Translations under genes and position numbers: made by a program
Shown: positions 11,485-56,761 of the stretch, piece after piece
How positions within the stretch are numbered: the first letter of the stretch is position 1
Layout: each line of letters opens with the position of its first letter
Notes under the pieces: model-generated
What the model was told of the DNA's origin: nothing
Database searches by the model: none
What the model saw: the letters and a program-made list of their open reading frames with translations, nothing else
Source of the DNA: a virus
Virus record (IMG/VR): IMGVR_UViG_3300048997_000225
Location: 68,504-132,503 of that record
Length of the DNA stretch: 64,000 nt
Direction: 5' to 3' (one strand)

Positions 11485-11524
11485 ACCTGCCCCACCATAC
11501 TCAATAAAGCCTTGGAATAAATTA

Positions 11525-12709: not shown

Positions 12710-12749
12710 GTTCTATTACTCCAATCCCATTAATTTATTAGAATGGAAA

Positions 12750-13479: not shown

Positions 13480-13485
13480 GTTGCA

Positions 13486-13743
13486 TCACCTATCCCTTCC
13501 TACATTAGTCCTAGGAAGAATCCTGTCTCCAGTTCCTACAGCACAATCTACCATATCTAATGACAGCGGAGCACTAGGAACTGAATAAACCACGGCTTCA
13601 ATTTCAGATTGTTCTTTTGCAGTCAATGTATCCCAGAGAATATCTAGTTCTGCACATCGAATAGATTCTTCTAACTGTGATAATGGTCTATCGATCATAA
13701 ATTCTATAAATTTTGGATAATATTGATTAGTCATATATTTCAT
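13486..13743 (-). CDS. Small hypothetical protein
   Basis: 85 aa; ATGA overlap with upstream gene. Confidence 0.55.
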   Translation of the reverse strand: MKYMTNQYYPKFIEFMIDRPLSQLEESIRCAELDILWDTLTAKEQSEIEAVVYSVPSAPLSLDMVDCAVGTGDRILPRTNVGRDR

Positions 13744-16013: not shown

Positions 16014-16019
16014 GATTTA

Positions 16020-16181
16020 TTATTTCTTAGTTACTGACTTAAGGATTTGTTGATATTTAACTAATTCTTTTTGAGCGTCCAATAATGCTTGATGAGTCGA
16101 ATCACGTGTCTTTTGAACAGCTTCCCGGATGATCCCTGGTCCAACTTGTTTATTATGTTCCCATTTATTAGAATCTTCCAT
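16020..16181 (-). CDS. 53-aa helical protein (missing from ORF track)
   Basis: Hand translation MEDSNKWEHNKQVGPGIIREAVQKTRDSTHQALLDAQKELVKYQQILKSVTKK*. Exactly fills the intergenic gap. Confidence 0.6.
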   Translation of the reverse strand: MEDSNKWEHNKQVGPGIIREAVQKTRDSTHQALLDAQKELVKYQQILKSVTKK

Positions 16182-16191
16182 CGGATTCCCT

Positions 16192-29980: not shown

Positions 29981-29986
29981 TAGTAA

Positions 29987-30715
29987 TTAAGGAATATCTT
30001 CCCCGTTTTTAGCAAAATCACCAGTCCCGGATATGAGATCTGCTTCTAATTGACTCGGACTTTTAGTAGGCCCTCCAGTTACGTCACCCGGACGAATGAG
30101 ACGATTATTGGATAATGGGAACAAATAAACTCGTTCCTCTATTTTAAATTCCCAATCCAAATCGAATGAATAGGCTTTCTCGTCAGTTTCTTTAACTGAA
30201 AATGTTGTGAAATGTCCCATATAAATGCCGCGATCATAAATTATCATGATCCGGCCGCGAAGAATCGGGACTCCATTGCCATTAAATATTTGTCCATTTC
30301 CGCGAAATAAATCGAGTAAGTCTTCTTGCCTCTCCCATGCCATAGTGGCATGACGTCCGGGATCGCCTGCTGCAACAGACGGCCCTTGATTATTGGAAGA
30401 CGTGCCATCACTCCCGGCAGTTAAACCAGTGTTAGGTCCAATAAACGCACCTGTACTAGCAGTAGCAGATAAAGTATCTAGTTCTTCTGGCCAGTTAAAT
30501 TCAACAAATCCTCCAACAGTCATAACGACTGTTTTGGATTTTGTCATAGATTCGCTCAATGACGAAGGATTAATATGTAAAGCGAGTAAAAATGGATAAA
30601 GTGGTTGTTTTAATGGATCAGTGACTTGAAAAAGTATGGGTCGGCCTTTTTTGGTTGAATATGTGAATGATTCACCAATTTTAGGATTTGGAATATTGGG
30701 TAACTGAATGGGCAT
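29987..30715 (-). CDS. Tail tube initiator / baseplate protein (gp48/gp54-like)
   Basis: Directly after tape measure. 'LHINPSSLSES...YMGHFTTFSVKET...FDLDWEFKI'. Confidence 0.6.
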   Translation of the reverse strand: MPIQLPNIPNPKIGESFTYSTKKGRPILFQVTDPLKQPLYPFLLALHINPSSLSESMTKSKTVVMTVGGFVEFNWPEELDTLSATASTGAFIGPNTGLTAGSDGTSSNNQGPSVAAGDPGRHATMAWERQEDLLDLFRGNGQIFNGNGVPILRGRIMIIYDRGIYMGHFTTFSVKETDEKAYSFDLDWEFKIEERVYLFPLSNNRLIRPGDVTGGPTKSPSQLEADLISGTGDFAKNGEDIP

Positions 30716-36332: not shown

Positions 36333-37163
36333 TTAATAACTCATAACTACTTTATTGTTCCAAGTATCAAGCTCTTGTCGTAAGTTCTTATATAATTGTT
36401 CAGGATCATTTTCAGACAATCCTGACATAGAACCGTCATTAAGCTCAATAACTATCCAATCTCCAGAAGCGGTCTCGGCAACATCGATTACATAGAAATT
36501 AATATTATCTTGGATTCTCCCAATCACCTCTGCTAGAAAATCAAGAGGGACAGATTCGGGATCAGGTGAGATATTAAGGTCATGAATTTCTTCAATATGA
36601 CTAGACCAATAATATCCACCACTCAAAATTTGAGAACGATAACAAAAAAATCTATATTCATTAGTTATCGGCAAACCTTGAATACCTATCATGTAAGTCT
36701 TGAGCGGAACGAATTCACGAATATAAATATGTTGATTGGAAATCAGGGAATCTGCGTATAAGCGAGATTCGACTTCAATAGCGTCTTTTTTGTTCTTGGC
36801 AAACATATGAGATTGCCAAAGCTGTTTCTTCGAATTAGTCTCGCCTTTAAGAACAAAAGATGTATTTTCAGGTAAATCTTGAGTACGAGACCAAGTTTTA
36901 GGAGTGAGATCAGATAAATCAGTCACCCAATTCTGCAAATCTGCAACATATAAATGTTGTTGATAACTATTTATTAACTTAGCCCCAACGAATTGAACAT
37001 CTGATTCAAGTTCGCGATAGAACGGAAGCGCACTATATCGCGGAATCACCAGCGAGTCCGGTTGGATTCGCATCCGAGTCCCGATGATTGGGAAATGATG
37101 AGCAGCGGCAACTTGTTCTTGCTGCCAGTCTTGACCGTCTCGGAATAATATAATAGGCTCCAT
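36333..37163 (-). CDS. ATP-grasp protein (R2K-like)
   Basis: 'FVLKGETNSKK..W', 'YIREFVPL', 'NEYRFF', 'FYVIDVA....DWIVIELNDGSMSG'. Confidence 0.8.
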   Translation of the reverse strand: MEPIILFRDGQDWQQEQVAAAHHFPIIGTRMRIQPDSLVIPRYSALPFYRELESDVQFVGAKLINSYQQHLYVADLQNWVTDLSDLTPKTWSRTQDLPENTSFVLKGETNSKKQLWQSHMFAKNKKDAIEVESRLYADSLISNQHIYIREFVPLKTYMIGIQGLPITNEYRFFCYRSQILSGGYYWSSHIEEIHDLNISPDPESVPLDFLAEVIGRIQDNINFYVIDVAETASGDWIVIELNDGSMSGLSENDPEQLYKNLRQELDTWNNKVVMSY

Positions 37164-39199: not shown

Positions 39200-39871
39200 C
39201 TAACCAAAAAGACGCGATCCGCTGCCAGGCTTGAGCAATGGGTTGTTCCCAGAATCCAATTGAGAACCATAATTATCTGGGCTAGTACCATAAAAGCTAC
39301 TACCATCAGTCACATCAGTACATGTTGCCGCTGCATCTTCCATGACTATAGCAGAATCACTTGGGAAGCTTACGCTAACAGAGTTTAGCCAACAAGCTTC
39401 GAAATATGTAATAAGTGCAAAATTAGGATCATCAGTTGCCAAAGTCTTGATTAAAATCGAAGCTTGATCACGCACCGTGACAAGTTCGGAAAACACTAAT
39501 TCTGAACGCAAATCGAATGGCCAACGATGATGCCTGAGTGAACGAACTAGACCGTCCACGCCGCCCCGATAACCAACTTCTTGAACAATACCTGCTGTAT
39601 ATAGCAAAGTCCGGTTCAAAGTGATAGCCATGGGCTCTGTCACATTCGGGACAAGCTCTTGAATCTTATCGCCGAACCCAACGCCGCGGACTGGGTCTAT
39701 TCCTCTACTTTCACTATAATCAAATGTCGAAAGCACTCCAATTTGTTTATCACTTGGTTGTTGGACCGTGAATGGACGAGAAAAAACGCGATTCTTCTGT
39801 GAAATCGCGACTCTAGTATTCGGTGAAGAACCACTTCTATAGATATACGAATCCGCTGCATCTCTAGACAT
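39200..39871 (-). CDS. Tail tube protein
   Basis: 223 aa with GGGAG SD. 'IGVLSTF...ESRGIDPVRGVGFGDKIQELVP...ITLNRTLLY...PFDL...TYFEACW' is a myophage tube pattern. Confidence 0.8.
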   Translation of the reverse strand: MSRDAADSYIYRSGSSPNTRVAISQKNRVFSRPFTVQQPSDKQIGVLSTFDYSESRGIDPVRGVGFGDKIQELVPNVTEPMAITLNRTLLYTAGIVQEVGYRGGVDGLVRSLRHHRWPFDLRSELVFSELVTVRDQASILIKTLATDDPNFALITYFEACWLNSVSVSFPSDSAIVMEDAAATCTDVTDGSSFYGTSPDNYGSQLDSGNNPLLKPGSGSRLFG

Positions 39872-41881: not shown

Positions 41882-42179
41882 TTATATTGCTAAGCGCCAA
41901 CAATCACGACGCATGAACGTTGTCCGACGCCGGTTTTTTGCTCGGGAACTCATCATTCAGCTCAAATCGCAACCTTGTGCGGATTGTAAGCTCCCTTACC
42001 ATCATTGCCAAATGGACTTCTGGCATAAGCAACAAAACGGCGTCCCATTGGCCAGGTTGCTTCTGAAATCCAAAGACCGGATCATTTTAGAAGTCCAAAA
42101 ATGCGATTTGCTATGTGCCAACTGCAGTCGGCTGCGCACTTGGAAATTCGAACGCCAGCAACGCTCGAGCGACACTTAA
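41871..42179 (+). CDS. Small HNH-like Zn-binding protein, possibly degenerate
   Basis: 'KSQPCADC...MDFWH...EVQKCDLLCANCSRLRT'; the family normally has FDH and CANCH. ATG at 41871 preferred as start. Confidence 0.65.
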   Translation: MSSDYIAKRQQSRRMNVVRRRFFARELIIQLKSQPCADCKLPYHHCQMDFWHKQQNGVPLARLLLKSKDRIILEVQKCDLLCANCSRLRTWKFERQQRSSDT

Positions 42180-42180
42180 C

Positions 42181-42441
42181 ATGTTCGTTTTGCTATTGTT
42201 AGCAGAAAATATCAAATTCGCAATGCATGAATCCGAAATGCAAAATTCAAGGCGCGTTCAAAAATGTCCAACTTGCGAAACCACTTTAAATCAATTTGAA
42301 GTTTTCTACAGAGAATGTAAAAATTGCAGATTGGACAAAATTCGAAGGAACAGTCTCACTATTCAATTTTGTAAACATAACAAAAATATTAAAATTTGCC
42401 AAGACAATGAATGCGTCGTAAGTCACATCATGAGCAGTTGA
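42181..42441 (+). CDS. Small Zn-ribbon protein ending in the shared C-terminal motif
   Basis: CPTC...CKNC; ends ECVVSHIMSS*. Start uncertain. Confidence 0.55.
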   Translation: MFVLLLLAENIKFAMHESEMQNSRRVQKCPTCETTLNQFEVFYRECKNCRLDKIRRNSLTIQFCKHNKNIKICQDNECVVSHIMSS

Positions 42442-42659
42442 GGCTTGCCTGTAAGTTCGGTTGCACAAAACGGACAGAATTTAATATTCACCAGCCAATA
42501 CAAGCCGCGTTCACTTATCGCAACGTCGCTAATCATCACCCATCCGGGAACGTTCCCATTTTGGACTTGCGATTCCCACCAAATGGATTTTGCTGCCGCA
42601 GCGCAACATTTAGGGTGGAATTTATCACAATGCAAATCGGAATTCAGAAACGAATCCAC
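42423..42659 (-). CDS. Small Cys-rich protein
   Basis: 'KCC...IKFCPFCATEL', a common phage Zn-finger pattern. Confidence 0.6.
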   Translation of the reverse strand: MDSFLNSDLHCDKFHPKCCAAAAKSIWWESQVQNGNVPGWVMISDVAISERGLYWLVNIKFCPFCATELTGKPQLLMM

Positions 42660-42681
42660 AAATCAATGAAGCTTAATAATT

Positions 42682-43296
42682 TTATTGATCCATAACGATT
42701 TGCAATTGATCAAGCAGTTTATTCCAATTCCCAGTGACGTCTCGTTGCAATTGAATAAGTCCTTGACTGTTGTGTCGCTTATAATAGTCAGTGGTTTGGA
42801 ACAATTCAAGAATTTTAGGAAAGTTTTTATCAACTTGGAAAGTCAGATATGGATCCATCCATTCGTCCACGTCTTCATATTTAGTTCCAGGTGGATGTCC
42901 GGCGCAAGAGCTATGCGTTTTGAATCCATTCCCATTCAAGAAATGCAATACTTCTAGAAAATCCGCATCATCATCCATGTCTTCTTCAGGACCAAAGATA
43001 TTGAGCTTGCCATGAGAAGCCACGATTAAACGCGCAGCAATTTGTTCCAAAATTTCATGAGCCGCGTCATCTCCTTTTGGGCTTGGAGTCCCAGGAGCTT
43101 TTTGAGCCCAAGTGTCACCAGACTTAGTAATAAACACCACTGCTGGATATCCGCGGATCTTAATTGATCCTGAATATTCAGCTTCTTTCAACACCATGTC
43201 TGGAAGCTTCTGAACGTCCCATTTTCCATCCCCCTCGAGATGGAAAGCAGGACCCGGAACTAATTTTGGAAGATCATTACTCATTAAAGCGGTCAA
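42682..43296 (-). CDS. Hypothetical protein with 'GFKTHSSCAGH' motif
   Basis: 204 aa, co-oriented with neighbours. Confidence 0.6.
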   Translation of the reverse strand: MTALMSNDLPKLVPGPAFHLEGDGKWDVQKLPDMVLKEAEYSGSIKIRGYPAVVFITKSGDTWAQKAPGTPSPKGDDAAHEILEQIAARLIVASHGKLNIFGPEEDMDDDADFLEVLHFLNGNGFKTHSSCAGHPPGTKYEDVDEWMDPYLTFQVDKNFPKILELFQTTDYYKRHNSQGLIQLQRDVTGNWNKLLDQLQIVMDQ

Positions 43297-43308
43297 AAAT
43301 AAGGGAAA

Positions 43309-43821
43309 TTATTCCTTAGTGTGATGACCTTTACCACGAGCATCAATCATATATGTATGATTATCGCTCTGATCTCCATAGAGCGAATGGACAGCTTTCT
43401 CAATTTGCTCGAGTGGCTTATCTAAATCTTGGACCGTATCCACTTCCGCAAAAATCCCGGCAATAGTTTTAATAGCGGAAGCCACTTTGGGCCGCATCGC
43501 AACATTTTGTGGACGAGACGCCACAGCCCAAGCCTTCTCGAGGCTCGACAAAATCGTATAAATTCTCCGGTAATTGGCCGCTGGAATAGCTGAAGCCGCT
43601 TTAAGCTTCTTGATTTGATCGCCAATGAAAGCCGCGTCATCTTTCATTGACTGCGCACCCCAAGGACTATTTTTATCTTCCCTCGCCTGCTCGTTGAGCA
43701 AAGACACCTGAGATTGTAACTCAGCTACCGTCCTATCAATAGCTTCGCCTTGCGGATCCGTTTCGGCAAGTCGGCGAGAAGTTGCAAGAACATGATTGAC
43801 TGCGGTTTCTGTGCTGCTCAT
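43309..43821 (-). CDS. Helical hypothetical protein, possible virion component
   Basis: 170 aa, GAGGA SD. Confidence 0.65.
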   Translation of the reverse strand: MSSTETAVNHVLATSRRLAETDPQGEAIDRTVAELQSQVSLLNEQAREDKNSPWGAQSMKDDAAFIGDQIKKLKAASAIPAANYRRIYTILSSLEKAWAVASRPQNVAMRPKVASAIKTIAGIFAEVDTVQDLDKPLEQIEKAVHSLYGDQSDNHTYMIDARGKGHHTKE

Positions 43822-43859
43822 TCTAATAGTCCTCTTAAATGCGTGTGGGCATCAATAGT

Positions 43860-45359
43860 CTATGAATTCGGTTGTTCCAAATCTGATGTATATTTGGAAT
43901 GATGTTGCCGGGCCCGTTTGCCGATTTTATAATTACGAATTTCTTGTTCGGCAGCGGTCGTTAAATCGTCAGCAGTAACCACTGCTTGGCCGTTTTGGAC
44001 TCTGCCTGCAGCCGCCGATTTTATGACCGCGGACTCGGCCAGTTTCTTGATATAATCACCAGTGAATCCGGCGCACAAATCAATAACGGTCTTGACGGAT
44101 TCGCGAGTCATTGAAGCATCACACTTTACATTCAATGCTGTGAGAAAAGCTTGCAGCATCAAACTGCGATCGTCCGCATCAGGATATGGAATTTCAACTT
44201 TAACACTAAATCTGCCAGGCCGAGCGACCAAGGCTTCGTCCATCGATTCCAAGTCATTGGTTGAAGCCATCACAACAATTCCGGAATTGGACTGCGCACC
44301 ATCCAGTTGCGCCAAAAATTCGTTCAACACCGAACTGTCGCGCCCGGCGGTCGTTCGTTCGCCACCAAATAAATCCATGTCTTCAATGAAGATGAGACAT
44401 GGAGCCAGACCACGAGCCGCTTCGAACAAAGCTGTCACATGGTCTGGATATACAATAGATTTACCAGTACACCAAATCCGAGTAGCTTGCCCATTGACCT
44501 CATTGGAGGTTGCCCGAAAAATAGTAGTTTTAGCCATTCCAGGTGGCGAAATCAACATAACATTCCGATTAGGACACATTCCAACCGATGCTAAGGATTC
44601 CATATTCTGAAGGATTCCAACAGAATTGTTCCTGATTTGAAGTTTGATATCATCTTTTAAGATGATATCATTCCAAGACGTTGGAATGATACCGAAAAAT
44701 CCTAAATTCCCCTTATTGAACATCAAACATTTTTGAAAATAAATATCATTCTCTCGCAATGAAGTCTGATAATCTTGGAAGAATCGTTCGGCCTCCACTA
44801 AATCTTCCGGCCGTGACATAATTTGAATGCTGCAGTTACTATCATAATAACAAAAATCAAAGCGCATTATGAAACGGCAGCCAGTAACTCGATGCTGAAC
44901 GAAAAACGTACCTGAAACAGGCAAAGAAACTGATTGATTTAGACTTATCTCAATAGATTCAGATTGAATACGAAATTGTTGTCCACTTTTTACATATTCT
45001 TTATATTCATAGGTATCGATGAATGGAATAATATCATATGGAGATTCAGGAACGTAATGACTAAATAACCGAGAAAATGCCCAGGCATTTAAACTCTTAG
45101 CATAAGCCGGGTATGATCGGGACAGATTTGAACATAGATGAATTTCACAACCTAGCCATAGTTCTTTGATATGGGTATCAAAGTCCCCAGGCATAGGTTT
45201 GCTCTTAAGCCGGCTACTCTCTATTCGTTCATCGATCTTTGCGAAATAAGAATCAATGAGATAATTAAACGCCGAAGCTAATGGCCTGGATATTCCATAT
45301 CCAGTTTCAGGAAGAGAATTAAGATAAGATGAGATTTTGGTGGTTAGGCCGGTGCCCAT
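43860..45359 (-). CDS. AAA+ ATPase, classic clade, single AAA module
   Basis: Walker A variant SPPGMAKT, Walker B LIFIEDMD, SRH 'STNDLESMDEALVARPGRF', lid 'GFTGDYI'. Confidence 0.9.
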   Translation of the reverse strand: MGTGLTTKISSYLNSLPETGYGISRPLASAFNYLIDSYFAKIDERIESSRLKSKPMPGDFDTHIKELWLGCEIHLCSNLSRSYPAYAKSLNAWAFSRLFSHYVPESPYDIIPFIDTYEYKEYVKSGQQFRIQSESIEISLNQSVSLPVSGTFFVQHRVTGCRFIMRFDFCYYDSNCSIQIMSRPEDLVEAERFFQDYQTSLRENDIYFQKCLMFNKGNLGFFGIIPTSWNDIILKDDIKLQIRNNSVGILQNMESLASVGMCPNRNVMLISPPGMAKTTIFRATSNEVNGQATRIWCTGKSIVYPDHVTALFEAARGLAPCLIFIEDMDLFGGERTTAGRDSSVLNEFLAQLDGAQSNSGIVVMASTNDLESMDEALVARPGRFSVKVEIPYPDADDRSLMLQAFLTALNVKCDASMTRESVKTVIDLCAGFTGDYIKKLAESAVIKSAAAGRVQNGQAVVTADDLTTAAEQEIRNYKIGKRARQHHSKYTSDLEQPNS

Positions 45360-45431
45360 GTTAACCCTTCATCAAAGGAAGTTTAAAAATCCGAACGAAA
45401 ATCCAATAGGGACGTACGTAGGGGATAATTA

Positions 45432-45755
45432 ATGGATCATCGACATAAACTCAAATGTAAATTTCTGCGTCTAAAAATATCCAATACGTTACGAGAAATC
45501 ATAACAATCATACCGATTCATAATTTGGTTGAATATCAGAATGTTGGATATGTATATTCAGGGACAGGCACATATAGAGACGGATGTGGTAAGTTCCCAG
45601 CTTCAGTCAAAGTTTTGATAAAAGAAAATGATATTATGTTCCAAATGATATCTGAATCCGGCAGATTATCATTCTCGCATCGGCTCAATACTGATGAAGA
45701 CAAACAAGCTCTCTTGGAGTCTATTCATAGAATAAATTCCCGATTATTGAACTAA
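45432..45755 (+). CDS. Hypothetical protein
   Basis: 107 aa, GGGG SD-like sequence upstream. Confidence 0.5.
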
Positions 45756-46855
45756 AATTGTCTATCGATTTGAATCCCAATATAAGCTATGGCAACACCG
45801 TTGGATGTTCCAGCGCTCAACAAAACTTCATAGACTTTGGAAGCAGTAGGTAATATTACCGGGCCAGATGATATTTTGGCAATAGTATTACCACCGATTC
45901 CGATGGAAGCTACTATGACTCCGCCGTCGGATACGTTCCGGATGACAGCTAAACCAGTTCCAGCGCTTTCACGCCTACCAATAACAACGAATGATGTGTT
46001 TAAAACTGCGCCGGAAAATTGATAATCAAGCGGATTATATGCTTGCGCGCCAATGATATATGGTCCGGTTCCAGCAGGAATCGTGACTCCAGCAGCGCGC
46101 AATGGCAAATCAGATCGGAACAGTTGGCCCGATCTGAATCCAGGACCTGCTGGACCAATCGCTCCAATTGGTCCAGTATTTCCTTTAGGTCCTGTTGTAC
46201 CGACGCCACCCGTAGGACCGGTCGGACCAGCAGGCCCGGTAGGTCCACCACCAAGAGGCCCGGTAGGTCCAAGAGGCCCTGGAAGACCCGTCGAACCTCT
46301 AGGACCGGTTGGACCGGCTGGTCCGGTTAGACCAATTGGGCCTATAGGACCAGTAAATCCTGGAGATCCTTGAGGCCCTTGCGTACCCGTAGGACCCAAA
46401 GGACCGGTTAATCCCCGTGGACCAGTGGGTCCTGTTGGCCCAACCGGTCCACCTGCAGGTCCAGTTGGTCCAGCAGGCCCTTGAGATCCTGGGACTCCAG
46501 GAGGTCCTTGGAAACCTCCCTGTCCATCTGGTCCTCGTACGCCTTGCGGACCAGCCGGACCAACAAATTGATTAACTTGCGGGTCCTTAGTTCCAGCTTT
46601 CAACAACCGAATATTGAAAGAATAAGCAAAAATATGAGTAAATGGTTGAGTAACAGCAGCCATAGTAATTTGGCTGATAACCCATTCGTCCGGATGCAGT
46701 TCTAATGTAGAAAATATCTGGGAAAATATCTCAGGTTGATTCAAATAGACAATCGGATTAGGAAGAATAATGTCAGTATTAACTAAAACATAAGCATTGA
46801 TAATATTACTGACGTTAGATGCCAGTTTTTCAACACCGACTGTCGTTGCAGGCAT
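45752..46855 (-). CDS. Collagen-like protein (head or tail fibre/whisker)
   Basis: Central Gly-X-Y tract between globular N- and C-terminal domains. Confidence 0.8.
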
Positions 46856-46873
46856 GACAGACCATACAGTTTA

Positions 46874-47251
46874 TTAAAGGCGCCGCGATACCATTAAACA
46901 TCCGTGAGACATTCCAAATTGAATGGAATTTATAGTCGCGGATATTTCTAGGAGTTCTTTCTCTAAATCGAGAATGTCTTGAGAATGATTAACAATAAGT
47001 GATCTCAATCCATTTCGAGCGGATTTATCAATTTCACGAACAAATTCCAATTCTTGCCTCCAACATATGTCTGCAAGAACAGCTAACTGCTCAATAATAT
47101 TATTACGTCTCGAGTCCCATTCATCAAGTCTTATATGTTCATCGCATTGTGGATAGTCACACACCCAAGCCACGTCGCCACAATAAGAACACCATTTCAG
47201 GCATCCATGACATTTGTGTTGTCCAGGACATTCTTCCGAGTCTGAAGTCAT
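46874..47251 (-). CDS. Cys/His-rich hypothetical protein
   Basis: CPGQHKCHGCLKWCSYCGD...CDYPQCDEH followed by a coiled coil. Confidence 0.65.
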   Translation of the reverse strand: MTSDSEECPGQHKCHGCLKWCSYCGDVAWVCDYPQCDEHIRLDEWDSRRNNIIEQLAVLADICWRQELEFVREIDKSARNGLRSLIVNHSQDILDLEKELLEISATINSIQFGMSHGCLMVSRRL

Positions 47252-47793
47252 GATTCCATGACTTCGTTTATTACTTTTTTATTTATAACATCTTGCCAGA
47301 CAGCAACTACGTCTTGCTTCCTCAAATATTTAGCCCATACCTGAATTATCCGACGAAGTTCCCCCTTGGCTCGATTCCGATTTTGTTGAATATTCTTAGA
47401 TTTTAGTCGTTTAGCAATAGCCGGCTTATTTACATAACTACGTGCTGCTGCTGCAATTTGTTTTTGAATGAGAGCAGCAACTTCCCAATACAGGTGTTGG
47501 AATTTATCATTCTCAATAATTTTATTGGACTTGGTGCGATGCAGTCCGAGTTTCTTTTCACCACCGAGAAACTTAACGATTTCTCGGTGAATATCAGAAG
47601 TATATTGACGCTTAAAATCTTCCATATGATTGAAGTTAAGTGAATAAATTTGCCGAGTTCGAGTCCTCCCGTCAAGTTCAAATGTAATCTTTACAATTAA
47701 ACTATCTTGGGATCTAGATCGCATTCGGAATTCAATATTTGAAACTTGAAGTCGAGACGTAAGATATTTAAGTTCTGTGGTGCTCAGTGCCAT
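47248..47793 (-). CDS. Basic hypothetical protein ending in the shared C-terminal motif
   Basis: 181 aa; ends KKVINEVMES*. Confidence 0.65.
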   Translation of the reverse strand: MALSTTELKYLTSRLQVSNIEFRMRSRSQDSLIVKITFELDGRTRTRQIYSLNFNHMEDFKRQYTSDIHREIVKFLGGEKKLGLHRTKSNKIIENDKFQHLYWEVAALIQKQIAAAARSYVNKPAIAKRLKSKNIQQNRNRAKGELRRIIQVWAKYLRKQDVVAVWQDVINKKVINEVMES

Positions 47794-47832
47794 ATTTATT
47801 TTAGATATACACTAAGAAGAATCAGATTTTCG

Positions 47833-48087
47833 TTATTCTTCCATAATATCTTGGATTTGTTTATAATCGCACGTAAATTTTGGTTCTTTGAAATTTATGG
47901 ATTCTTGACCACAGCGAACACATCTTCTAAGGTTTTCTATATCAACCCAGTCAGTAATAAATTGGATGTATATCGTGACTTGCGAGCCATCTTTATCAAG
48001 AAATGTTGAATTAGATTCGGAATCCTTAGATAATTCAACATTTTCCCATTGATGTTGGTTATCATTGACTGAATGGGATGCTTTCAT
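47833..48087 (-). CDS. Small protein ending in the shared C-terminal motif
   Basis: HQW...RRCVRCG; ends CDYKQIQDIMEE*. Confidence 0.6.
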   Translation of the reverse strand: MKASHSVNDNQHQWENVELSKDSESNSTFLDKDGSQVTIYIQFITDWVDIENLRRCVRCGQESINFKEPKFTCDYKQIQDIMEE

Positions 48088-48409
48088 ATTCTTGAATTAT
48101 TTTACCTGCTTCATATAAAACTTCCAAAGTGGCTTGCTTACCTTTAAACCAACAACCTACGCGGGCTGTCATAGCTACGTCTTCCAGTCCATTGCGAATA
48201 ACGACAAAATCTTTCAAACAGCCGTCATCAAACCAACCACTAATAGTTAAATCGGTATTAGGAATAATGTAGACTATATCTGGCCGTGGGAAATATTCTA
48301 AAGATTCGAATATAGATATAATTAAACATGCACGAGATTCGGCAGCTAATCTTTCATCAGATGAGATATTATATATTATTGGGAGTGATAGTCCAGACAT
48401 CATAAACAC
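48062..48409 (-). CDS. Hypothetical protein
   Basis: 115 aa, co-oriented and overlapping the next gene. Confidence 0.55.
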   Translation of the reverse strand: MFMMSGLSLPIIYNISSDERLAAESRACLIISIFESLEYFPRPDIVYIIPNTDLTISGWFDDGCLKDFVVIRNGLEDVAMTARVGCWFKGKQATLEVLYEAGKIIQEYESIPFSQ

Positions 48410-48415
48410 TATACG

Positions 48416-48453
48416 GGGATTAGATATTATGGGATCCCATAATATCTAATCCC
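48416..48453. repeat. Perfect 38-bp palindrome
   Basis: gggattagatattatggga|tcccataatatctaatccc. Confidence 0.95.
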
Positions 48454-48462
48454 ACGATAATT

Positions 48463-48804
48463 TCACTCGCCGACTGACTCGGCTATAATAGTAATACGTG
48501 CAACTCGGCCATTAAAATCAGGGCGTTTACTAGCCACATGTTCAATAGCTTTAGAAACTGTCGCTATATCGAATTTCCCTTTGAAACTGATTTTTGCCGG
48601 AGCAACTGGATCAGCAGCCAATGTTGTATTGCCAACTACAGACATAATCCGCGATTGTGCTTGTTCGTTACCTTCAAGAGCATCCATAGCACATTTCAGA
48701 TCTGCCGCAACCATCTTCCGAACAGGTTGCTTGGACTTATCAATCCCAGTAGCTATAGCTAACAGGAATGATGCGACATGACTAGGCGAAAATTTATTAT
48801 CCAT
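48463..48804 (-). CDS. Hypothetical protein, possible virion component
   Basis: 113 aa, GAGGT SD, amphipathic N-terminus. Confidence 0.65.
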   Translation of the reverse strand: MDNKFSPSHVASFLLAIATGIDKSKQPVRKMVAADLKCAMDALEGNEQAQSRIMSVVGNTTLAADPVAPAKISFKGKFDIATVSKAIEHVASKRPDFNGRVARITIIAESVGE

Positions 48805-48848
48805 TGGGTACCTCGAAAATTTGGTATGTAGACTAATATTTATGTTAC

Positions 48849-49571
48849 ATGAAAAGTTTGATAATTATGATAACATCGTTGTTAGTTGGATGCGCCACCA
48901 GCGCATATCCTCTATCGCCAAATGTTGTACAATCCAATTCATCGATCGTAATAATACCGCCATCCCCAATAAATATCATAGTAATATTGGATAGAAATGA
49001 TATTGAAAATTCAATTCGATATAAAGATCATGATGAATCCAGCTTATTGAATCAAGCGTTCCCTAATCGAATGTTGGACCCTGCAGAATGTGATATTGAT
49101 GACTCCAGTTCCATGCGAGTGTTACCGGAATTTATCAATATGATCCATGGATCGTTCATGAATGGTCGTGCTACTAAAGTTTATACAGCAATTGTCCATA
49201 ATTGTGAATCAATTAAACAAAATATTGTTGGCGTCTGGGTAGCAGTGTTTGTTAATGACAATAACGAAGTATTAAATAAATCAACGCTTCCAGCGCCAGC
49301 CATACGAGCGGTGACAATCGATACTGAGAGCGGTGATGATTATATAATTGCCACCAGCATGAATTGCATGTCTGGAACGTGTTCGGCCGATGCTTGGTTG
49401 TTAAGGTTAGAATATAACGAATTGACGATTCGATTGTTTAAACCTCATGTTTATTCATCGGATTGTGGAAAAACTAATGGAAAAATTGTGTGGACATCTA
49501 TTCATTATAAAATTCAAAACCAAGAACTTAATATAGAAGAAAAAATTAATTCTGGATCATGCAAACATTAA
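48849..49571 (+). CDS. Predicted lipoprotein
   Basis: MKSLIIMITSLLVGC lipobox; paired Cys. Confidence 0.7.
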   Translation: MKSLIIMITSLLVGCATSAYPLSPNVVQSNSSIVIIPPSPINIIVILDRNDIENSIRYKDHDESSLLNQAFPNRMLDPAECDIDDSSSMRVLPEFINMIHGSFMNGRATKVYTAIVHNCESIKQNIVGVWVAVFVNDNNEVLNKSTLPAPAIRAVTIDTESGDDYIIATSMNCMSGTCSADAWLLRLEYNELTIRLFKPHVYSSDCGKTNGKIVWTSIHYKIQNQELNIEEKINSGSCKH

Positions 49572-50443
49572 TGAATATCTGCGCAACAGCGAGTCCCAGT
49601 CACATATAAATGATCGTCAGGAGGATGAGTTTTGGTCATCGGACGACATTGATTCCGAGCACTCTTTACCCAATGTCCGCCTTTTAAAATACTAATCTTT
49701 CGACTAGATGAACGAACCCATTCATTACGAACCCATTCATCAGCATTGGCTACTAAATCATGGACTCCAAATACTGATGAACATGATTCAAAAGCGCCGG
49801 ACGCAACGCTCTGATCAACTTCTGATATAGGTCTATTACCAATAGCTAACTTAGTTCCAGGCCTCATATACCAAGGATTTATCCATTGGTGGCCTGAATT
49901 ACAAGCATTGAAATCACGATGATATCCATCACCGTATGAATACGGATGCATATTCTCGCCTTCACAAGCGAATGTCCATTCGGATTCAGTACATAATCGC
50001 TTCCCAATACCTTCACAGACTGCTTTAGATTGATTCCAACTCATATCTAAAGCAGGCTTCTGGCCTTTCCGATTGGGCCATTCATATATATCAATGCAAA
50101 AATGCTTACTGTGTTTAGTTGAGCTCAAACACTGGCTTGGATAAAATTCAGCACACATACGACATTGGCTACGCCAAGGTGGAGGTCCCTTTTTCCCGGC
50201 GTCCAAACAAGATAAACAAATTTGGTGAACTAATGGACAATATAATCCTTGGATTTCTACCATGTCTATTGGACAAGATGTAGAACGTTCAATCGGTAAA
50301 GAATCTAATGATATTGCCGATTCTGGTTCAGCAATAATAGTAACTGCGTCCAGCATTGCTATAGAATGGCGTTGGGAATTATCATCATTCTGACATCCAA
50401 TCAATAACAAACAAACAATGAGTCCAATTTTATGCTGTGGCAT
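49568..50443 (-). CDS. FGE-sulfatase (SUMF1/EgtB/PvdO)-like exported or lipo-protein
   Basis: Signal/lipobox LLIGC; 'CPIDMVEI', 'FCIDIYEWP', 'GKRLCTESEWTFACEG', 'FGVHDLVANADEWV', 'KGGHW', 'GTRCC'. Confidence 0.85.
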   Translation of the reverse strand: MPQHKIGLIVCLLLIGCQNDDNSQRHSIAMLDAVTIIAEPESAISLDSLPIERSTSCPIDMVEIQGLYCPLVHQICLSCLDAGKKGPPPWRSQCRMCAEFYPSQCLSSTKHSKHFCIDIYEWPNRKGQKPALDMSWNQSKAVCEGIGKRLCTESEWTFACEGENMHPYSYGDGYHRDFNACNSGHQWINPWYMRPGTKLAIGNRPISEVDQSVASGAFESCSSVFGVHDLVANADEWVRNEWVRSSSRKISILKGGHWVKSARNQCRPMTKTHPPDDHLYVTGTRCCADIH

Positions 50444-50472
50444 ATGAAATACCTCAACATAATTTTACCGAT

Positions 50473-50883
50473 TCATTGTGGGACTTTTATATATCGAGTT
50501 GGAATATTCAATGCTTGAGCTTTTCGAGCACAATCATAAGTTCCAATACTTCTAGGCCCTGGAAATGCTAAACATTGGATTGCGCAGTCCAGTTCTTGGG
50601 CTTCAACATGAGCTGCTTGAACCATTTCGGAATTGCGAATAGGGCCCGCTCTATCACCAAATAAGTTCCATCGAGCAGCATGTCTTCGCTGAATCCAGCT
50701 GCCATGCTTATTTACAAAATCATAAGCATGAGTATCCACTCCAGCTAAATTATCGCCATGATATAAAATGACCATGCGATTTATGTATTCAGACAGTATC
50801 ATTATTACAGGTTCCGGATCCACTAAATATCTAGAACCTGTAATAATGATTACTAATTTATCGGAACTAAATTCTGATTTCAA
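50473..50883 (-). CDS. SLOG-superfamily protein (DUF2493 / YspA-like)
   Basis: 'IIITGSR...HGD..GVD...W...GDRAGPIRNSEMV...LAFPG..SIGT'. Confidence 0.8.
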   Translation of the reverse strand: MKSEFSSDKLVIIITGSRYLVDPEPVIMILSEYINRMVILYHGDNLAGVDTHAYDFVNKHGSWIQRRHAARWNLFGDRAGPIRNSEMVQAAHVEAQELDCAIQCLAFPGPRSIGTYDCARKAQALNIPTRYIKVPQ

Positions 50884-53251
50884 CTTCTTTAGGTGTCACA
50901 GTACCAATAATTTTCTGGCCATCCAATTGAAGTTCCATAGAGTTTTCTTCAATAGATTGGAATTCACTGAACCAAACTTGACCGACAATGATTGCAAATT
51001 TGATTTGAGCCTGCTCGAACAAAAGCCTGCGAACAACATTCTTAGCATTTTCCTGTTGTGCTTTGAGCCAAGTTCCGAAGGTTTGAACAGGATCGGGAGA
51101 AGTTAAATAAATAGGGCTTACCAAAAAATCTTCAACAGCTTGAATAGAAGGAACCATGAGCGAGGCCGCTGGCGTGAGCTTACCTTTCACCATGCGATCT
51201 TTTACATCCTTCAATGAAGGCAAAGAAGAAAATCCTTTCAAAGCCACATGGAGTTCCTTCCCAAGATAAAAGTCCTTAGATTCAGCTTGAACAGTCTTAG
51301 GACTGAATCCGGAATAATCAGTCAGGCCTTGTTCTTTTAGCCAAGCGGAAGCTGCTTCTCCATATTGAGCTGTAAATCCTACGCTCTCGCGTGGGAAATG
51401 TTCTTTTTGATAAGAATTATATACTTTTTGAGCCGCTCGAGCTTTGCATAATTCATATTCCGTTATGAACAATTCTCGAGCACTGACGGACTGCACCATC
51501 TTCCGGTTTACGACGGGAAGATTACGAAGGTTCAATAACGAGACTCCTTCCGAGTCTTCAGACAACGTACCGGCAGGAAGATTCTCCTTATACAACATTC
51601 CTAACGTAGCATCAGATAGTTTAACTGGTAACACATCAATATTCACTAAACCATCTCGAACAATGGCATAATTTCGATAAATAAATGTTTCGAATTCAAC
51701 AGGAACCTTTGGAGTATCATTCGTAAGCCGCTCAGACAAATCAACAGATCCGAGCTTTTTCACTAATACAGAGATATTCGGCCGGTCTTCATTAAATACT
51801 AAATGAGAAATGGAGTATCCATCAGTTGCTGGTTTAGGCTTGAATATCAAGCCCGGGACTTTTTTGGCAGTCATATTGGCAAGTTGATGTTGTAGCTCCT
51901 TGAGCTTTTTAACATCACGTTCAGCCGCGATTTGCGCAGTAAGCATTTGCAATTCTTGGACTTCATCCGTGTTCAAACGTTCGCCAGCATCAACCCGACC
52001 GCGTGAAATCCGGCCATATCGGAAAGCTGGATGATCCAAGAGCAAAGTGTTGTTGTCTTCGTTAGCCAAAATATCTAGCAAATCTAGAACCGTAAAGGCA
52101 TCATCAGGCGGAACTCGAGTGGGATCCCATCCTTCAATAAATCGCACGTTGGGATCCACAGCCGCGTTTTTAGCAGCCATCATGAAATCTGAATATTTTT
52201 GTTTCCCGAAGCAAGTAGAGAATTGATTTATCAATGCAACGTCGCCAAGAGCTTTCAAAAGTGGATAAACCACATCGGGCTCCATGCGAATGCTAAACAA
52301 ACTGACTGCTGCATAAATTGCCGCAATAGGATTCAGAATATCCGAACAAACATCTCCGTTAGCTTCAGTTTCAGAATAAGATTGCACAGTCCGCTGTTCT
52401 GCACCGAGCAAAGTTGGATTCAGAAAATAAACTTCAGAAAAATCTTCCGGAACACGAACTTTTCCAGAAATTATTTCAAACGTAACAAGTTCATTATCAC
52501 GAATAGCGTATACGAATTCTCCAAAAGGATCGCCCGCGATATCAAGTTCAATCTTCGGGGCACCAGAAAGCTTGCGTTGTAAAGATGATTCCAAAACCGG
52601 AGCATAGGAATCAAAATCTTCAGAAAAAATAAGTGTTCCGCCGGATTTCTCCGCCATAGCAGTCAGAAGTGGCCTGTCTGCATAATATCCATATTCAACA
52701 TAGGTCGCAGAGGCGAATTGTAAAGCCGAATTCTCTAATGCTTTTAGAATATCCGAACGCCTAGAACAATTATCGCAACCATCACTCATGAAAAATAATG
52801 AAAATAATCTATCTTTCGATTTCTTCTTTACTCTTTCTATTAATTTGCTAACTTCTTCCAAAGGTTCCTTAAAACCAGTTAAACCAATAGGTCGAAGCCA
52901 ACGATCAATAGCAAAATTCATATCTTTCAACTCAATCAAATTCGAAATCTGCTGAGATTCAACCAAAACTCCAAATTCACCTCTTCCACTAAACCAGATT
53001 ATGGATATTGTATCTTCTTCCCGAAGAATTTTCGGCAATTTGTTTTTCAGCTGTTCACGAATTCTTGGCAAATCACCGGCCATTGAACCTGAACAATCAA
53101 TAATCAAAATATGATCAACAGGATTGGCTATTGGTGGAGAAACCAATTCCTGGTTAACTTCTTGACGAACGAGGAACAATGAACTAGAAATTTGAAAAGA
53201 TGAGACAATCATTAGAACTCCCAGGTTACAATTAATTTGATAAAAATACAT
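50867..53251 (-). CDS. vWA domain protein (likely start at MIVSSF)
   Basis: MIDAS 'IIDCSGSM', 'GLTGF', 'FFMSDG'; GGGAG SD before the internal ATG. Confidence 0.8.
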   Translation of the reverse strand: MYFYQINCNLGVLMIVSSFQISSSLFLVRQEVNQELVSPPIANPVDHILIIDCSGSMAGDLPRIREQLKNKLPKILREEDTISIIWFSGRGEFGVLVESQQISNLIELKDMNFAIDRWLRPIGLTGFKEPLEEVSKLIERVKKKSKDRLFSLFFMSDGCDNCSRRSDILKALENSALQFASATYVEYGYYADRPLLTAMAEKSGGTLIFSEDFDSYAPVLESSLQRKLSGAPKIELDIAGDPFGEFVYAIRDNELVTFEIISGKVRVPEDFSEVYFLNPTLLGAEQRTVQSYSETEANGDVCSDILNPIAAIYAAVSLFSIRMEPDVVYPLLKALGDVALINQFSTCFGKQKYSDFMMAAKNAAVDPNVRFIEGWDPTRVPPDDAFTVLDLLDILANEDNNTLLLDHPAFRYGRISRGRVDAGERLNTDEVQELQMLTAQIAAERDVKKLKELQHQLANMTAKKVPGLIFKPKPATDGYSISHLVFNEDRPNISVLVKKLGSVDLSERLTNDTPKVPVEFETFIYRNYAIVRDGLVNIDVLPVKLSDATLGMLYKENLPAGTLSEDSEGVSLLNLRNLPVVNRKMVQSVSARELFITEYELCKARAAQKVYNSYQKEHFPRESVGFTAQYGEAASAWLKEQGLTDYSGFSPKTVQAESKDFYLGKELHVALKGFSSLPSLKDVKDRMVKGKLTPAASLMVPSIQAVEDFLVSPIYLTSPDPVQTFGTWLKAQQENAKNVVRRLLFEQAQIKFAIIVGQVWFSEFQSIEENSMELQLDGQKIIGTVTPKEVEIRI

Positions 53252-53279
53252 TCAAACGGATTGATTTGTATAATGATGA

Positions 53280-53558
53280 ATGATGAAGCCATTCCCGAAG
53301 CCTACATATATTGTATGGAAAGGTTTAATTCTTCGGAAAGATCGAACGTATAAATATTATGCTTGGCAGACTAGACATTTAGGGCAGACTGTACGAGTGA
53401 TTCGAGGAGCTTTCGATAACTGGGTTGGAATGATTGGTCCTTCGCACGGTATCGGGAAGACTCCTGCTATAGCTTTATCAAATGCATTCCGGAATTTAAA
53501 AACTCAAACTCAATCATATCGAAATTTAGTTTCGGATTTAAATCGAAGATTGAGTTAG
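53280..53558 (+). CDS. Small basic hypothetical protein
   Basis: 92 aa; GTATAAT just upstream. Confidence 0.6.
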   Translation: MMKPFPKPTYIVWKGLILRKDRTYKYYAWQTRHLGQTVRVIRGAFDNWVGMIGPSHGIGKTPAIALSNAFRNLKTQTQSYRNLVSDLNRRLS

Positions 53559-53825
53559 TTTAAATCTCCAATCGACAGAATCGAATAATATGTTCCAGCC
53601 CAGTTCTGTCAATTGATATTCATAACTATAATTTATTGTTATCATTTGATTCTTGATCATTTTAAATAATTGATCACTGATCAAATTCTTATTGGCTGAC
53701 GAACCGTTCTTGATGATAAATCGATACAAATCTGGTCTAAATACTCCAGATTTGAAATTCAATTGATGCGTCGCTATTGCAACAATCAATTCTATTTTAG
53801 TTCGACATAATTTTAACATAAGCAA
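53538..53825 (-). CDS. Small winged-helix-like protein
   Basis: 'L.KMIKNQMI...YQLTELG' wing motif. Confidence 0.5.
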   Translation of the reverse strand: MLMLKLCRTKIELIVAIATHQLNFKSGVFRPDLYRFIIKNGSSANKNLISDQLFKMIKNQMITINYSYEYQLTELGWNILFDSVDWRFKLTQSSI

Positions 53826-53844
53826 AAATGGGACAATACCAATA

Positions 53845-54084
53845 TTATGTATACATTACGGATATTATCATATATTCATCAAAACTAGTTGGACGGAATT
53901 GCCAATAATTCCATCGGGTGATTGCACATTGGCATCCGCGTCGAGTCTTATATCGAAGTGCATATCGGATATTGGACATTTCCGATGTCCAAGTTATGGT
54001 GTAACAATGTGTGTTCCCATATCGGACTACAAATTCGCCGGTGTTCCAGTTACACATTATGAAGTAGTTATTGAAAGTGAACAC
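53845..54084 (-). CDS. Tandem paralog 3 of 3, with C-terminal motif
   Basis: WTSEMSNIRYALRYKTRRGC; ends EYMIISVMYT*. Confidence 0.6.
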   Translation of the reverse strand: MFTFNNYFIMCNWNTGEFVVRYGNTHCYTITWTSEMSNIRYALRYKTRRGCQCAITRWNYWQFRPTSFDEYMIISVMYT

Positions 54085-54331
54085 CGGCTACCGTAAGGTA
54101 TTTAATTAATTCATCCATCAGTATACCAGTCATATCATGACTTGCAAAATATCGCTTAGCTATATCAATACAAGCTTGACGACTACGATATAAAGCAACA
54201 TATTGAATGTCGTCAATATATTTACTCCAGCTAACACTAGAATAAGATACATAATTCCTTCGAGTTAAATATGTCCCGGTAGAATTGGAAAAAGGGACAT
54301 ATATTCGAGGATTATTATTAATAAATAGCAT
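54068..54331 (-). CDS. Tandem paralog 2 of 3
   Basis: WSKYIDDIQYVALYRSRQAC; ends YLTVAGVHFQ*. Confidence 0.6.
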   Translation of the reverse strand: MLFINNNPRIYVPFSNSTGTYLTRRNYVSYSSVSWSKYIDDIQYVALYRSRQACIDIAKRYFASHDMTGILMDELIKYLTVAGVHFQ

Positions 54332-54580
54332 TCAAGATTCCATTATCAATAATACTTGAAGTTCCCGGAATCGAATTGGACTACAATAATCGGAAAGTAT
54401 ATTATTATTAATATAAGCTATACATTGTTGTCGAGTTTTAAATTTCCTTATTTGATTGAGGCAGTTAATTTCTCCGGTGAAATATGTGCTTCCAGCAAAT
54501 TCAGCAACAAACAACCGAGAAACTCTAGAATAAATCACCCAATTTTTTCGAGATTTATCGAATCGTTCTTTACTTTTCAT
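54332..54580 (-). CDS. Tandem paralog 1 of 3, with C-terminal motif
   Basis: FTGEINCLNQIRKFKTRQQC; ends ELQVLLIMES*. Confidence 0.6.
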   Translation of the reverse strand: MKSKERFDKSRKNWVIYSRVSRLFVAEFAGSTYFTGEINCLNQIRKFKTRQQCIAYINNNILSDYCSPIRFRELQVLLIMES

Positions 54581-56099: not shown

Positions 56100-56492
56100 T
56101 CAACCTCCAGCGTCATATTGAAGCCAAATTCCAAGCGGGTGCCTTGATTGATTTGGATATTCAGAATTGGCTTCAGTTTGCCGTTGAATCTGGAAATCTA
56201 CAGGAAGTCCAGATGCTTGAGCAAGCCAAAGTGAAATTGAAGAACACATGATTGACCATAACGCATTATATTGTGATGAACTATTACGTTTTCCATCTTT
56301 AAATAAGCCTGGGAACATTCGGTCGTATTCAACATCGTCGAGAATGCATCGAACATCAACATCACGATAATCACGTCGTTCTATTGCCGAACCAACCAAA
56401 TAAATAGTATGACCGAAAGCAGCCGTCAGTGTTGAACAAGCTTGATTTAAATTAAAAATTTGTGGAGCTCCAATAAAATTGGCCCGCTTCAT
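56100..56492 (-). CDS. Minimal Pol-beta-family nucleotidyltransferase-like protein
   Basis: 'YLVGSA...YRDVDVRCIL...GLPVDFQ' gives the GS, DxD and third Asp. Confidence 0.65.
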   Translation of the reverse strand: MKRANFIGAPQIFNLNQACSTLTAAFGHTIYLVGSAIERRDYRDVDVRCILDDVEYDRMFPGLFKDGKRNSSSQYNALWSIMCSSISLWLAQASGLPVDFQIQRQTEANSEYPNQSRHPLGIWLQYDAGG

Positions 56493-56761
56493 GTGAATAA
56501 TCGATGGCGTTTGGTTAATTTAATAACAAGCATGACGCCGTATGCACCACCGTTACAAATATAATTGATAACTAAAGGGATGGAAGGCTTATCGGCCAAC
56601 AACACATGCGAAAGCATGCTGAACATGCCGATTTCTAGAATTACTAAAAATCCGAGCGAAACGCCGTCACAATGTCCATCTCTAAAAGTTTTGAAGAGTT
56701 GTGGCAGTACAGACAACATTAAAGCTATGGTGCCAATGTAACCTAGCCACTGAGCTATCAT
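56489..56761 (-). CDS. PQ-loop / SemiSWEET-like 3-TM membrane protein
   Basis: 'LGYIG...LPQLFKTFR....GVS', three hydrophobic segments, conserved Asn in TM3. Confidence 0.8.
   Translation of the reverse strand: MIAQWLGYIGTIALMLSVLPQLFKTFRDGHCDGVSLGFLVILEIGMFSMLSHVLLADKPSIPLVINYICNGGAYGVMLVIKLTKRHRLFT

Follow-up and report, generated by a model that had tools for sequence, protein, structure and literature searches.

Proteins with a shared C-terminal ending in the window

The window analyzed here, 64,000 nucleotides of viral DNA (bases 68,504-132,503 of IMG/VR record IMGVR_UViG_3300048997_000225), is the second half of one 132,503-bp phage contig with 39% G+C and encodes a set of small proteins that carry the same short ending at the extreme C-terminus, referred to below as the tag (Table 1). 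The contig is a virus record without end repeats and with a completeness rating of 30%, and its first half encodes a UvsX-like recombinase, a sigma factor, a clamp loader, a DNA polymerase and helicases according to PHROGs. Two proteins of the contig led to relatives that are likewise phage contigs, with lengths of up to 512 kb and in several cases terminal repeats, and the window therefore represents about one seventh of a huge phage genome. An earlier note on this DNA had proposed the motif [VI]xx[VI]M[ESY][SET] as a common ending of unrelated small proteins, with five core and three weaker cases; all eight termini are encoded where it had placed them and on the same strands. Positions are those of the window unless the contig or another record is named.

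Seven more carriers are encoded outside the window (contig 9854-14055, + strand), where they lie among replication genes and belong to two paralog families. BLAST comparison among the contig carriers revealed three paralog groups, namely three proteins of 165-177 aa (one pair at E 1e-10, the third member at 0.056), four proteins of 59-131 aa, most of them with membrane-like segments (E 2e-6 to 9e-3), and the tandem trio at 53845-54580 (E 4e-4 and 0.5), while the other carriers have no BLAST relatives in the contig. The description of the carriers as unrelated holds for the at least eight BLAST families that remain, but not within the tandem trio, whose members are paralogs. Most carriers have no PHROGs or Pfam family, and for the 181-aa carrier no relative was found in a database of 5.8 billion proteins.

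Table 1. Tag carriers, putative carriers and other genes of the window considered in this study
Feature	Position	Strand	Remarks
108-aa Cys-rich carrier (2 x CxxC)	42115..42441	+	ends ..ECVVSHIMSS
181-aa carrier	47248..47793	-	ends ..VINEVMES; public gene call is 125 aa
84-aa zinc-ribbon-like carrier	47833..48087	-	ends ..CDYKQIQDIMEE (..IQDIMEE)
79-aa carrier	53845..54084	-	ends ..MIISVMYT; paralog of the next gene
87-aa paralog	54068..54331	-	ends ..LTVAGVHFQ, a V-x-x-V-H variant of the tag
82-aa carrier	54332..54580	-	ends ..QVLLIMES
204-aa protein	42682..43296	-	last of the three genes in the conserved AAA cassette; its ending ..LQIVMDQ is a doubtful tag
ATP-grasp (R2K_3) protein	36333..37163	-	ends ..NNKVVMSY; probably not a tag
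499-aa classical AAA+ ATPase	43860..45359	-	conserved 240-aa N-domain, Bcs1/YjoB-like; candidate reader (Pfam, model, co-occurrence)
170-aa protein	43309..43821	-	next gene downstream of the AAA gene and part of the conserved cassette; no family
794-aa vWA-like protein	50867..53251	-	phrog_2426, E 4e-172; DxSxS motif read from sequence; not specific to tagged phages

Enrichment of the ending and its spread across genomes

Contig open reading frames (ORFs) were called as the longest ORFs of at least 40 aa, selected greedily and without overlap rather than with a gene finder, which resulted in 142 ORFs covering 96% of the contig. The four-residue pattern [VI]-M-x-x was terminal in 14 of these ORFs compared to 0.3 expected (binomial P 2e-19), while internally it was found 88 times at 42,002 positions. 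The exact motif of the earlier note was found at seven termini and at no internal position, and methionine was third from last in 15 of the 142 ORFs against a background of 2.0%.

To follow the ending in related records, its strict DNA form, RTNATGGANWSNTRA (V/I-M-E/D-S/T-type codon-stop), was counted in whole records with the reversed pattern as control, and a loose protein pattern, [VIL]xx[VI][MQH]xx, was counted at the terminus of all ORFs of at least 50 aa. Strict matches numbered five in this contig and 82, 58, 33, 12 and eight in the complete tagged relatives G002 (436 kb), G017 (427 kb), G019 (393 kb), G020 (377 kb) and G004 (363 kb), respectively. Twelve records, all encoding the vWA-like protein of Table 1, had 0-1 matches and are referred to as tag-free; among these G001 (407 kb), G005 (512 kb), G012, G013 and G014 are rated 100% complete and G011 is rated 90% complete. 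The reversed control gave 0-1 matches in all records. With the loose pattern 156 terminal matches were observed in G002, 95 in G019, 104 in G020, 77 in G004 and 15 in this contig, as opposed to three, five and one in the tag-free G001, G005 and G013. Another count in G002 gave 75 terminal and 11 internal matches, and 80 of the 82 strict DNA matches of this genome end an ORF of at least 53 aa, so the ending is not a free-standing DNA signal. The greedy ORF set of G002 undercounts the tag, because only 51 of the 82 strict matches fall inside the set.

Closer examination of 99 tagged ORFs of G002 revealed V or I at -7 in 93 and at -4 in 97 of them, M (90), H (6) or Q (3) at -3, E or D at -2 in 72 and S at -1 in 85, which gives the consensus hydrophobic(-8)-[VI](-7)-x-x-[VI](-4)-[M, rarely H/Q](-3)-[E/D](-2)-[S](-1)-COOH. 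These ORFs range from 54 to 316 aa, with 84 of the 99 not exceeding 190 aa. The remark of the earlier note that no large structural protein ends in this way is borne out by the ORF sets of G000 and G002, neither of which contains a tagged ORF of more than 316 aa.

Carriers are spread over the genome; some tagged genes stand in the replication region (contig 9.8-14 kb, + strand) and others among the large same-strand genes of the window. The core proteins of the contig are about 60% identical to those of G002, 50-60% to those of G004 and 30-45% to those of G001 and G005. The tagged genomes are each other's closest relatives and span 39 to 57% GC; the tag is limited to one clade of huge phages. 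A collection-wide scan with GTNNNNGARGTNATGGARTCNTGA returned 14 stretches, in which new records were only fragments or single chance-level matches. Among the matches listed by literature searches, no description of the tag was found.

The three weaker cases fared differently. The ending ..VAGVHFQ fits the V-x-x-V-[M/H/Q] variant of the relatives. The ending ..KVVMSY belongs to an ATP-grasp protein (Pfam PF14243, E 4.8e-20), whose homologs number more than 1000, and it is unlikely to be a tag, because none of the 119 closest homologs (53-66% identity) is tagged, the one that ends in LHVQ fitting the loose pattern by chance; the window copy has about ten extra residues. The ending ..LQIVMDQ of the 204-aa protein is doubtful, because homologs in 12-13 of 15 related loci lack it.

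Protein-level constraint and portability

The earlier note had suspected a constraint at the level of the protein from the varied codons of a few genes, and the larger sample agrees with this. At the fixed positions in G002 all six serine codons are in use (TCA 36, TCT 12, TCG 11, TCC 8, AGT 7 and AGC 7), as is every V/I codon. An ATGA overlap with the next start is found in only 13 of 93 tagged genes in G002, and 33 of the 93 have no same-strand gene downstream. In the window, the gene of the 108-aa carrier converges on that of the 204-aa protein, and no downstream gene is therefore coupled to this carrier. An artefact of start/stop coupling or of Shine-Dalgarno sequences was ruled out by the codon variety, the few ATGA overlaps and the 80 of 82 matches that end ORFs. 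These data support a constraint that acts on the protein and not on the DNA.

For 150 tagged proteins, of which 14 are from this contig and all others from G002 or G019, BLAST clustering after removal of the last 12 residues resulted in 142 clusters, 135 of them singletons, and 147 of the 150 had no Pfam family at E 0.001. A CxxC motif was present in 58 of them and a cysteine at -14 to -9 in 51. Of 45 full-length homologs that tagged proteins have in further tagged genomes, 30 were themselves tagged, often at 21-40% identity, compared to 14 of 1920 homologs of untagged queries. None of the five homologs found in tag-free genomes is tagged.

The suggestion that the ending is portable was corroborated by a RuvC-like resolvase (phrog_159), which is untagged in this contig, G004, G019, G020, G001 and G005, while the G002 ortholog alone ends in ..TVKEVMES on an otherwise collinear C-terminus. 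The tag was also found on a DHHA1-domain protein and on proteins with membrane-like segments (families A and B). The short terminal helix guessed from the spacing of the hydrophobic residues was recovered in the AlphaFold model of the 84-aa carrier, built from a 7-sequence alignment (predicted local distance difference test score, pLDDT, 84.6), which has five strands and a helix at residues 73-83, from the last invariant Cys to the end; no fold match at E 0.001 or better was found for it by Foldseek in the PDB. In this family H12, C56, C59 and C73 are invariant, with the last zinc ligand at -12 directly before the helix, and all three BLAST homologs, located in the loci around the AAA gene of relatives, are tagged at 24-40% identity. 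Taken as a prediction, the ending is supported as a portable amphipathic helix of 8-12 residues at the exact C-terminus.

A clade-specific AAA+ ATPase as candidate reader

The AAA+ ATPase encoded near the carriers had been pointed out in the earlier note as a possible reader of the ending. It contains one AAA domain (PF00004, E 5.7e-21, residues 267-392) and no other Pfam match, the score against bpMoxR being 19.1 bits and below the cut-off of 27. Its Walker B sequence is IFIED, with I325, E326 and D327 invariant in 20 homologs. The monomer model (pLDDT 85.8) has proteasomal Rpt/PAN, FtsH, p97, Rix7 and Bcs1 as top structural matches; with VIA, the whole model (residues 56-475) aligned to YjoB (7w42_B) with Z 20.2 over 354 residues, a root-mean-square deviation of 5.9 and 19% identity, and with Foldseek the whole model aligned over 463-497 columns with Bcs1.

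According to a published account of YjoB, this protein and Bcs1 have the 'ED' form of Walker B in common, the N-domain of YjoB adopts the fold of that of Bcs1, the hexamer of YjoB encloses a chamber that is sized for about 21 kDa and needed for chaperone activity, and such machines hold or move small folded proteins in the chamber (PMC9565160). The window ATPase resembles them in its single classical AAA domain and its 'ED' Walker B, and its N-domain, which the whole-model alignment with YjoB includes, may have the same fold. Bcs1, on the other hand, is membrane-anchored. The window protein is represented by a monomer model. No C-terminal tag is mentioned in the consulted passages of the YjoB account (PMC9565160).

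Homologs of the ATPase were found at 23 viral loci in 14 counted records, with 40-63% identity over the full length. Twelve of the 14 records have at least one strict match to the tag, and all five complete ones have 8-82. The 240-residue N-domain had no match in the 12 tag-free records, in agreement with BLAST for G001, G005 and G013, while the positive controls G002, G004 and G017 were recovered at E 1e-64 to 1e-81. Only 45 members of the N-domain family were found among 5.8 billion proteins, on contigs of up to 439 kb. The new records of the collection-wide scan with the tag pattern, all of them fragments or single chance-level matches, included no complete genome that is rich in tags and free of the ATPase. 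At nine of the 23 loci a tagged ORF is found no more than 10 kb from the AAA gene, compared to 0.01-0.10 expected per locus.

The ATPase forms a cassette with the 170-aa and 204-aa proteins that is conserved among large same-strand genes in 15 related loci, and the surrounding block includes a borderline Baseplate_J-like match (21.5 bits, cut-off 21.1). The proteins flanking the block that had been labelled tube and sheath, of 223 aa (39200-39871, - strand) and 1559 aa (58885-63564, - strand), have no PHROGs or Pfam family, and these labels are unconfirmed. The 223-aa protein is 61-88% identical in relatives.

Pfam analysis of 20 candidates restricted to the tagged clade returned AAA_28 kinase-like, sigma-70 region 2, DNA-ligase, adenylosuccinate synthetase and RF-1 domains, and no peptide-binding or protease domain; the ATPase carries the sole protein-remodelling annotation among the clade-specific proteins scanned. 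The co-located AAA+ ATPase thus keeps its place as a candidate, being present in all five complete tagged genomes and found in none of the 12 tag-free records; its architecture is not that of Pvc15. We prefer this Bcs1/YjoB-like protein as reader, as a tentative lead that is more apt to fail than to hold.

Other candidate readers

The vWA-like protein encoded in the same block was rejected as a tag-specific reader since it is present in the 12 records with 0-1 pattern matches; with an identity of about 50% whether or not the genome is tagged, it cannot be a tag-specific reader by itself. It is 43-58% identical across 27 viral loci, a much higher conservation than these genomes show elsewhere. 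G013 shares this protein, and its other BLAST matches to the contig are only partial and comprise DNA polymerase and a helicase. Adjoining the vWA-like gene are ORFs for an FGE-sulfatase-like protein with a lipoprotein-like start and for a weakly YspA/SLOG-like protein (25.2 bits, cut-off 28.2), located at 49568-50443 and 50473-50883 on the - strand.

A BCS1-like ATPase encoded outside the window (contig 8604-9857) was likewise set aside, as two viral relatives of it, at L005 and L006, occur without tagged ORFs; in G002 and G004 it has matches at the level of the AAA domain only.

As a reader acting at termination, the 208-aa RF-1-domain protein of G002 was discarded because it is found in only three of 25 records (G002, G004 and the tag-free G011). 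This truncated release-factor homolog of about 200 aa comprises the end of the PCRF domain and the RF-1/GGQ domain without an N-terminal domain, and is encoded at 129415-130041 in G002 (L040:9415-10041), 160048-160365 in G004 and 56188-56511 in G011. A tRNA with anticodon UUA, of the ochre suppressor type, is encoded outside the window (L001:1624-1695, + strand) in the contig to which the window belongs and in which TAA ends 75 of the 142 called ORFs.

Possible roles of the ending

The best supported reading is that the tag is a docking or address label for one common partner, and we regard the prospects of this reading as evenly balanced. One clade of huge phages would attach the helix to many small, mostly orphan proteins, and the partner would grip its hydrophobic face, acidic tip and free carboxylate and would handle all tagged proteins as one class. 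If the partner is the ATPase, small folded proteins would, as in YjoB and Bcs1, be taken up into a chamber inside its ring; a chamber for about 21 kDa, as given in the YjoB account (PMC9565160), would be near the size of most tagged proteins. It is improbable, in our estimate, that such a chambered ATPase, encoded among particle genes, would load or deliver tagged and often zinc-bound folded proteins, for example into the virion for co-injection, with other lineages using other labels and readers, among them the P-T-R-F-E-R-E-D-V-I-COOH ending of the relative G005 (see below). If one partner does read the label, up to a quarter of the unannotatable genes of this huge-phage clade would form one functional class and the tag peptide would be a direct handle for finding the machine.

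Several points weigh against a common partner or against the ATPase in this role. That a partner reads the tag is something we infer, and the tag helix of the 84-aa model is of high confidence (block pLDDT about 88) and could therefore be packed against the carrier itself instead of being free for a reader. A Cys-rich build is common to a third of the carriers, and the set may therefore consist in part of one diverged superfamily. The mechanical ORF sets hold spurious ORFs in GC-rich genomes. Co-occurrence with the ATPase is observed at the level of the clade, is confounded by shared ancestry and may reflect a single evolutionary event; a tree of the vWA-like protein was too poorly resolved to count independent gains and is compatible with a single origin. 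The AAA-bearing fragments G022 and G023 are without a strict match, while the 193-kb fragment G027, from a 45%-complete genome, has 12 matches and no AAA gene was seen in it. Moreover, 34 proteins of G002, the ATPase included, recur in G004, G019 and G020 but are missing from G001, G005 and G013. The narrowness of this same list, in which only one protein is a protein-remodelling ATPase, makes the question testable.

Exact C-terminal placement and a hydrophobic face beside the free carboxylate recall C-terminal degrons and adaptor docking tails, and the tag could thus serve timed turnover, with a host AAA+ protease or chaperone receiving either the small phage proteins or host targets that these have bound. 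The occurrence of tagged genes in both the replication block and the large-gene block, and hence the independence of the label from any single block, would suit such a role, and the phage-encoded reader is a candidate only. We nevertheless consider turnover by the host unlikely, given that the acidic or polar tip (E/D-S) differs from the non-polar ssrA-type tips, that the 39-57% GC of the tagged genomes suggests different hosts and that the absence of the tag from related phages is easier explained by a partner encoded by the phage. Similarly, we doubt that there is no external reader at all and that the helix is an intramolecular or self-associating element, copied by duplication and recombination, and the best-preserved remainder of one fast-evolving superfamily of small proteins, many with a zinc ribbon plus C-terminal helix. 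The three paralog families of the contig, the CxxC motif of 58 of the 150 carriers and the 84-aa family, with its last zinc ligand at -12 and a helix modelled with high confidence, are in line with this, but the 142 BLAST clusters that remain among 150 proteins once the tail is removed are not, and neither are the tags on membrane proteins (families A and B), on the RuvC-like resolvase of one genome and on the DHHA1-domain protein. In addition, the tag always ends the protein, which a fold element need not do.

The probability is low that the head or tail of the particle takes up the tagged proteins for injection together with the DNA, with the AAA+ ATPase as the loader. The cassette does lie inside a large same-strand block in 15 related loci, including the borderline Baseplate_J-like match, and the tagged genes at 47-54 kb of the window are on the same strand inside this block. 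However, a cargo of 77-156 tagged ORFs per genome would be very large, membrane-like segments are present in families A and B, half of the contig tags are found among replication genes, and the labels of the flanking genes as sheath and tube found no confirmation in PHROGs or Pfam. It is very improbable that the last eight codons act on the ribosome through the nascent chain, start/stop coupling, a suppressor tRNA or the release-factor homolog. The motif would be nearest the peptidyl-transferase centre when the stop is read, TCA-TGA, which overlaps ATG, is over-used (TCA in 36 of 81 serine codons), and a tRNA with anticodon UUA in the contig and the RF-1-domain protein of G002 and G004 could be parts of such a signal. 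Against this stand the low share of ATGA overlaps and the third of tagged genes without a same-strand gene downstream, the presence of the RF-1-domain gene in one tag-free record and its absence from the complete tagged G017, G019 and G020, and the helical i, i+3, i+4 hydrophobic pattern, which would be left unexplained.

Comparison with known systems

Reading by a common partner has precedents among short terminal peptides. The ssrA tag and the SspB tail, which docks on the ClpX N-domain, are C-terminal peptides read by AAA+ machines and resemble the tag in being short, placed exactly at the C-terminus, portable and read by one machine. The tag described here differs in that it is helical in prediction, is found on up to about a quarter of the phage genes without a known protease partner, and has an [E/D]-S tip in most tagged ORFs of G002 in place of the LAA-like non-polar tip. 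The MIM helices of ESCRT-III proteins bind the MIT domain of the classical AAA ATPase Vps4 and thus also represent a C-terminal amphipathic helix present on several proteins that docks on the N-domain of a single-ring classical AAA protein; ESCRT-III proteins, however, form one paralogous family, and no MIT domain was seen here with Pfam.

Encapsulin cargo-loading peptides and the encapsulation peptides of microcompartments, the latter helical, are short terminal peptides that direct enzymes to a shell, and as with the tag unrelated proteins share them, in that case for one shell. They mark few cargo enzymes and have known shell partners. Encapsulin peptides are Gly/Ser/Leu-rich motifs next to a shell gene, whereas V-x-x-V-M-E-S was found here on carriers spread over the genome. 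Pvc15 has two AAA domains, and the payload signals of Photorhabdus virulence cassettes (PVC) are N-terminal; common to both systems would be an AAA+ ATPase inside a block of particle genes, in the phage a putative one, and many small proteins as possible cargo. The window ATPase has one AAA domain in 499 residues, the tag is C-terminal, and the particle block is known only from the borderline Baseplate_J match. Likewise, a vWA-MoxR pair specific to the tagged proteins, as in systems that capture C-terminal peptides, was not found, since the ATPase is a classical AAA protein and the vWA-like gene is 5.5 kb away and also present in genomes without tag or ATPase.

Other C-terminal endings

A different shared ending was observed in G005 (512 kb), which lacks both the VMES tag and the 499-aa ATPase. 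At least 14 of its ORFs, of 81-349 aa, end in P-[PT]-R-F-E-R-E-[DEP]-V-I-stop, and E[DP]VI was terminal in nine and internal in three cases among 158,458 residues. Examples of the shared decapeptide (loci L094-L119) are found at 29554-30003, 107402-109506, 198805-200603 and 288766-289425. The occurrence of a second tag in a related lineage raises the possibility that terminal addressing is general in very large phages.

In the first half of the contig three neighboring proteins (L001:14719-15567, 15718-16599 and 17390-18730, + strand), the last of them the UvsX-like recombinase, end in ..SYDDLLAD, ..SYDALLE and ..AMELLDSP, respectively. Similar acidic tails are present in the G002 and G004 orthologs (DDLLS and SDLLT), and this tail may be a separate docking tail of recombination proteins. 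The DNA polymerase encoded outside the window (L002:15039-17945, - strand) ends in ..KFQFLASLFGLG, and its G002 and G004 orthologs end in LFGLG and ELFGI; this ending resembles a tail for clamp binding and differs from the VMES tag.

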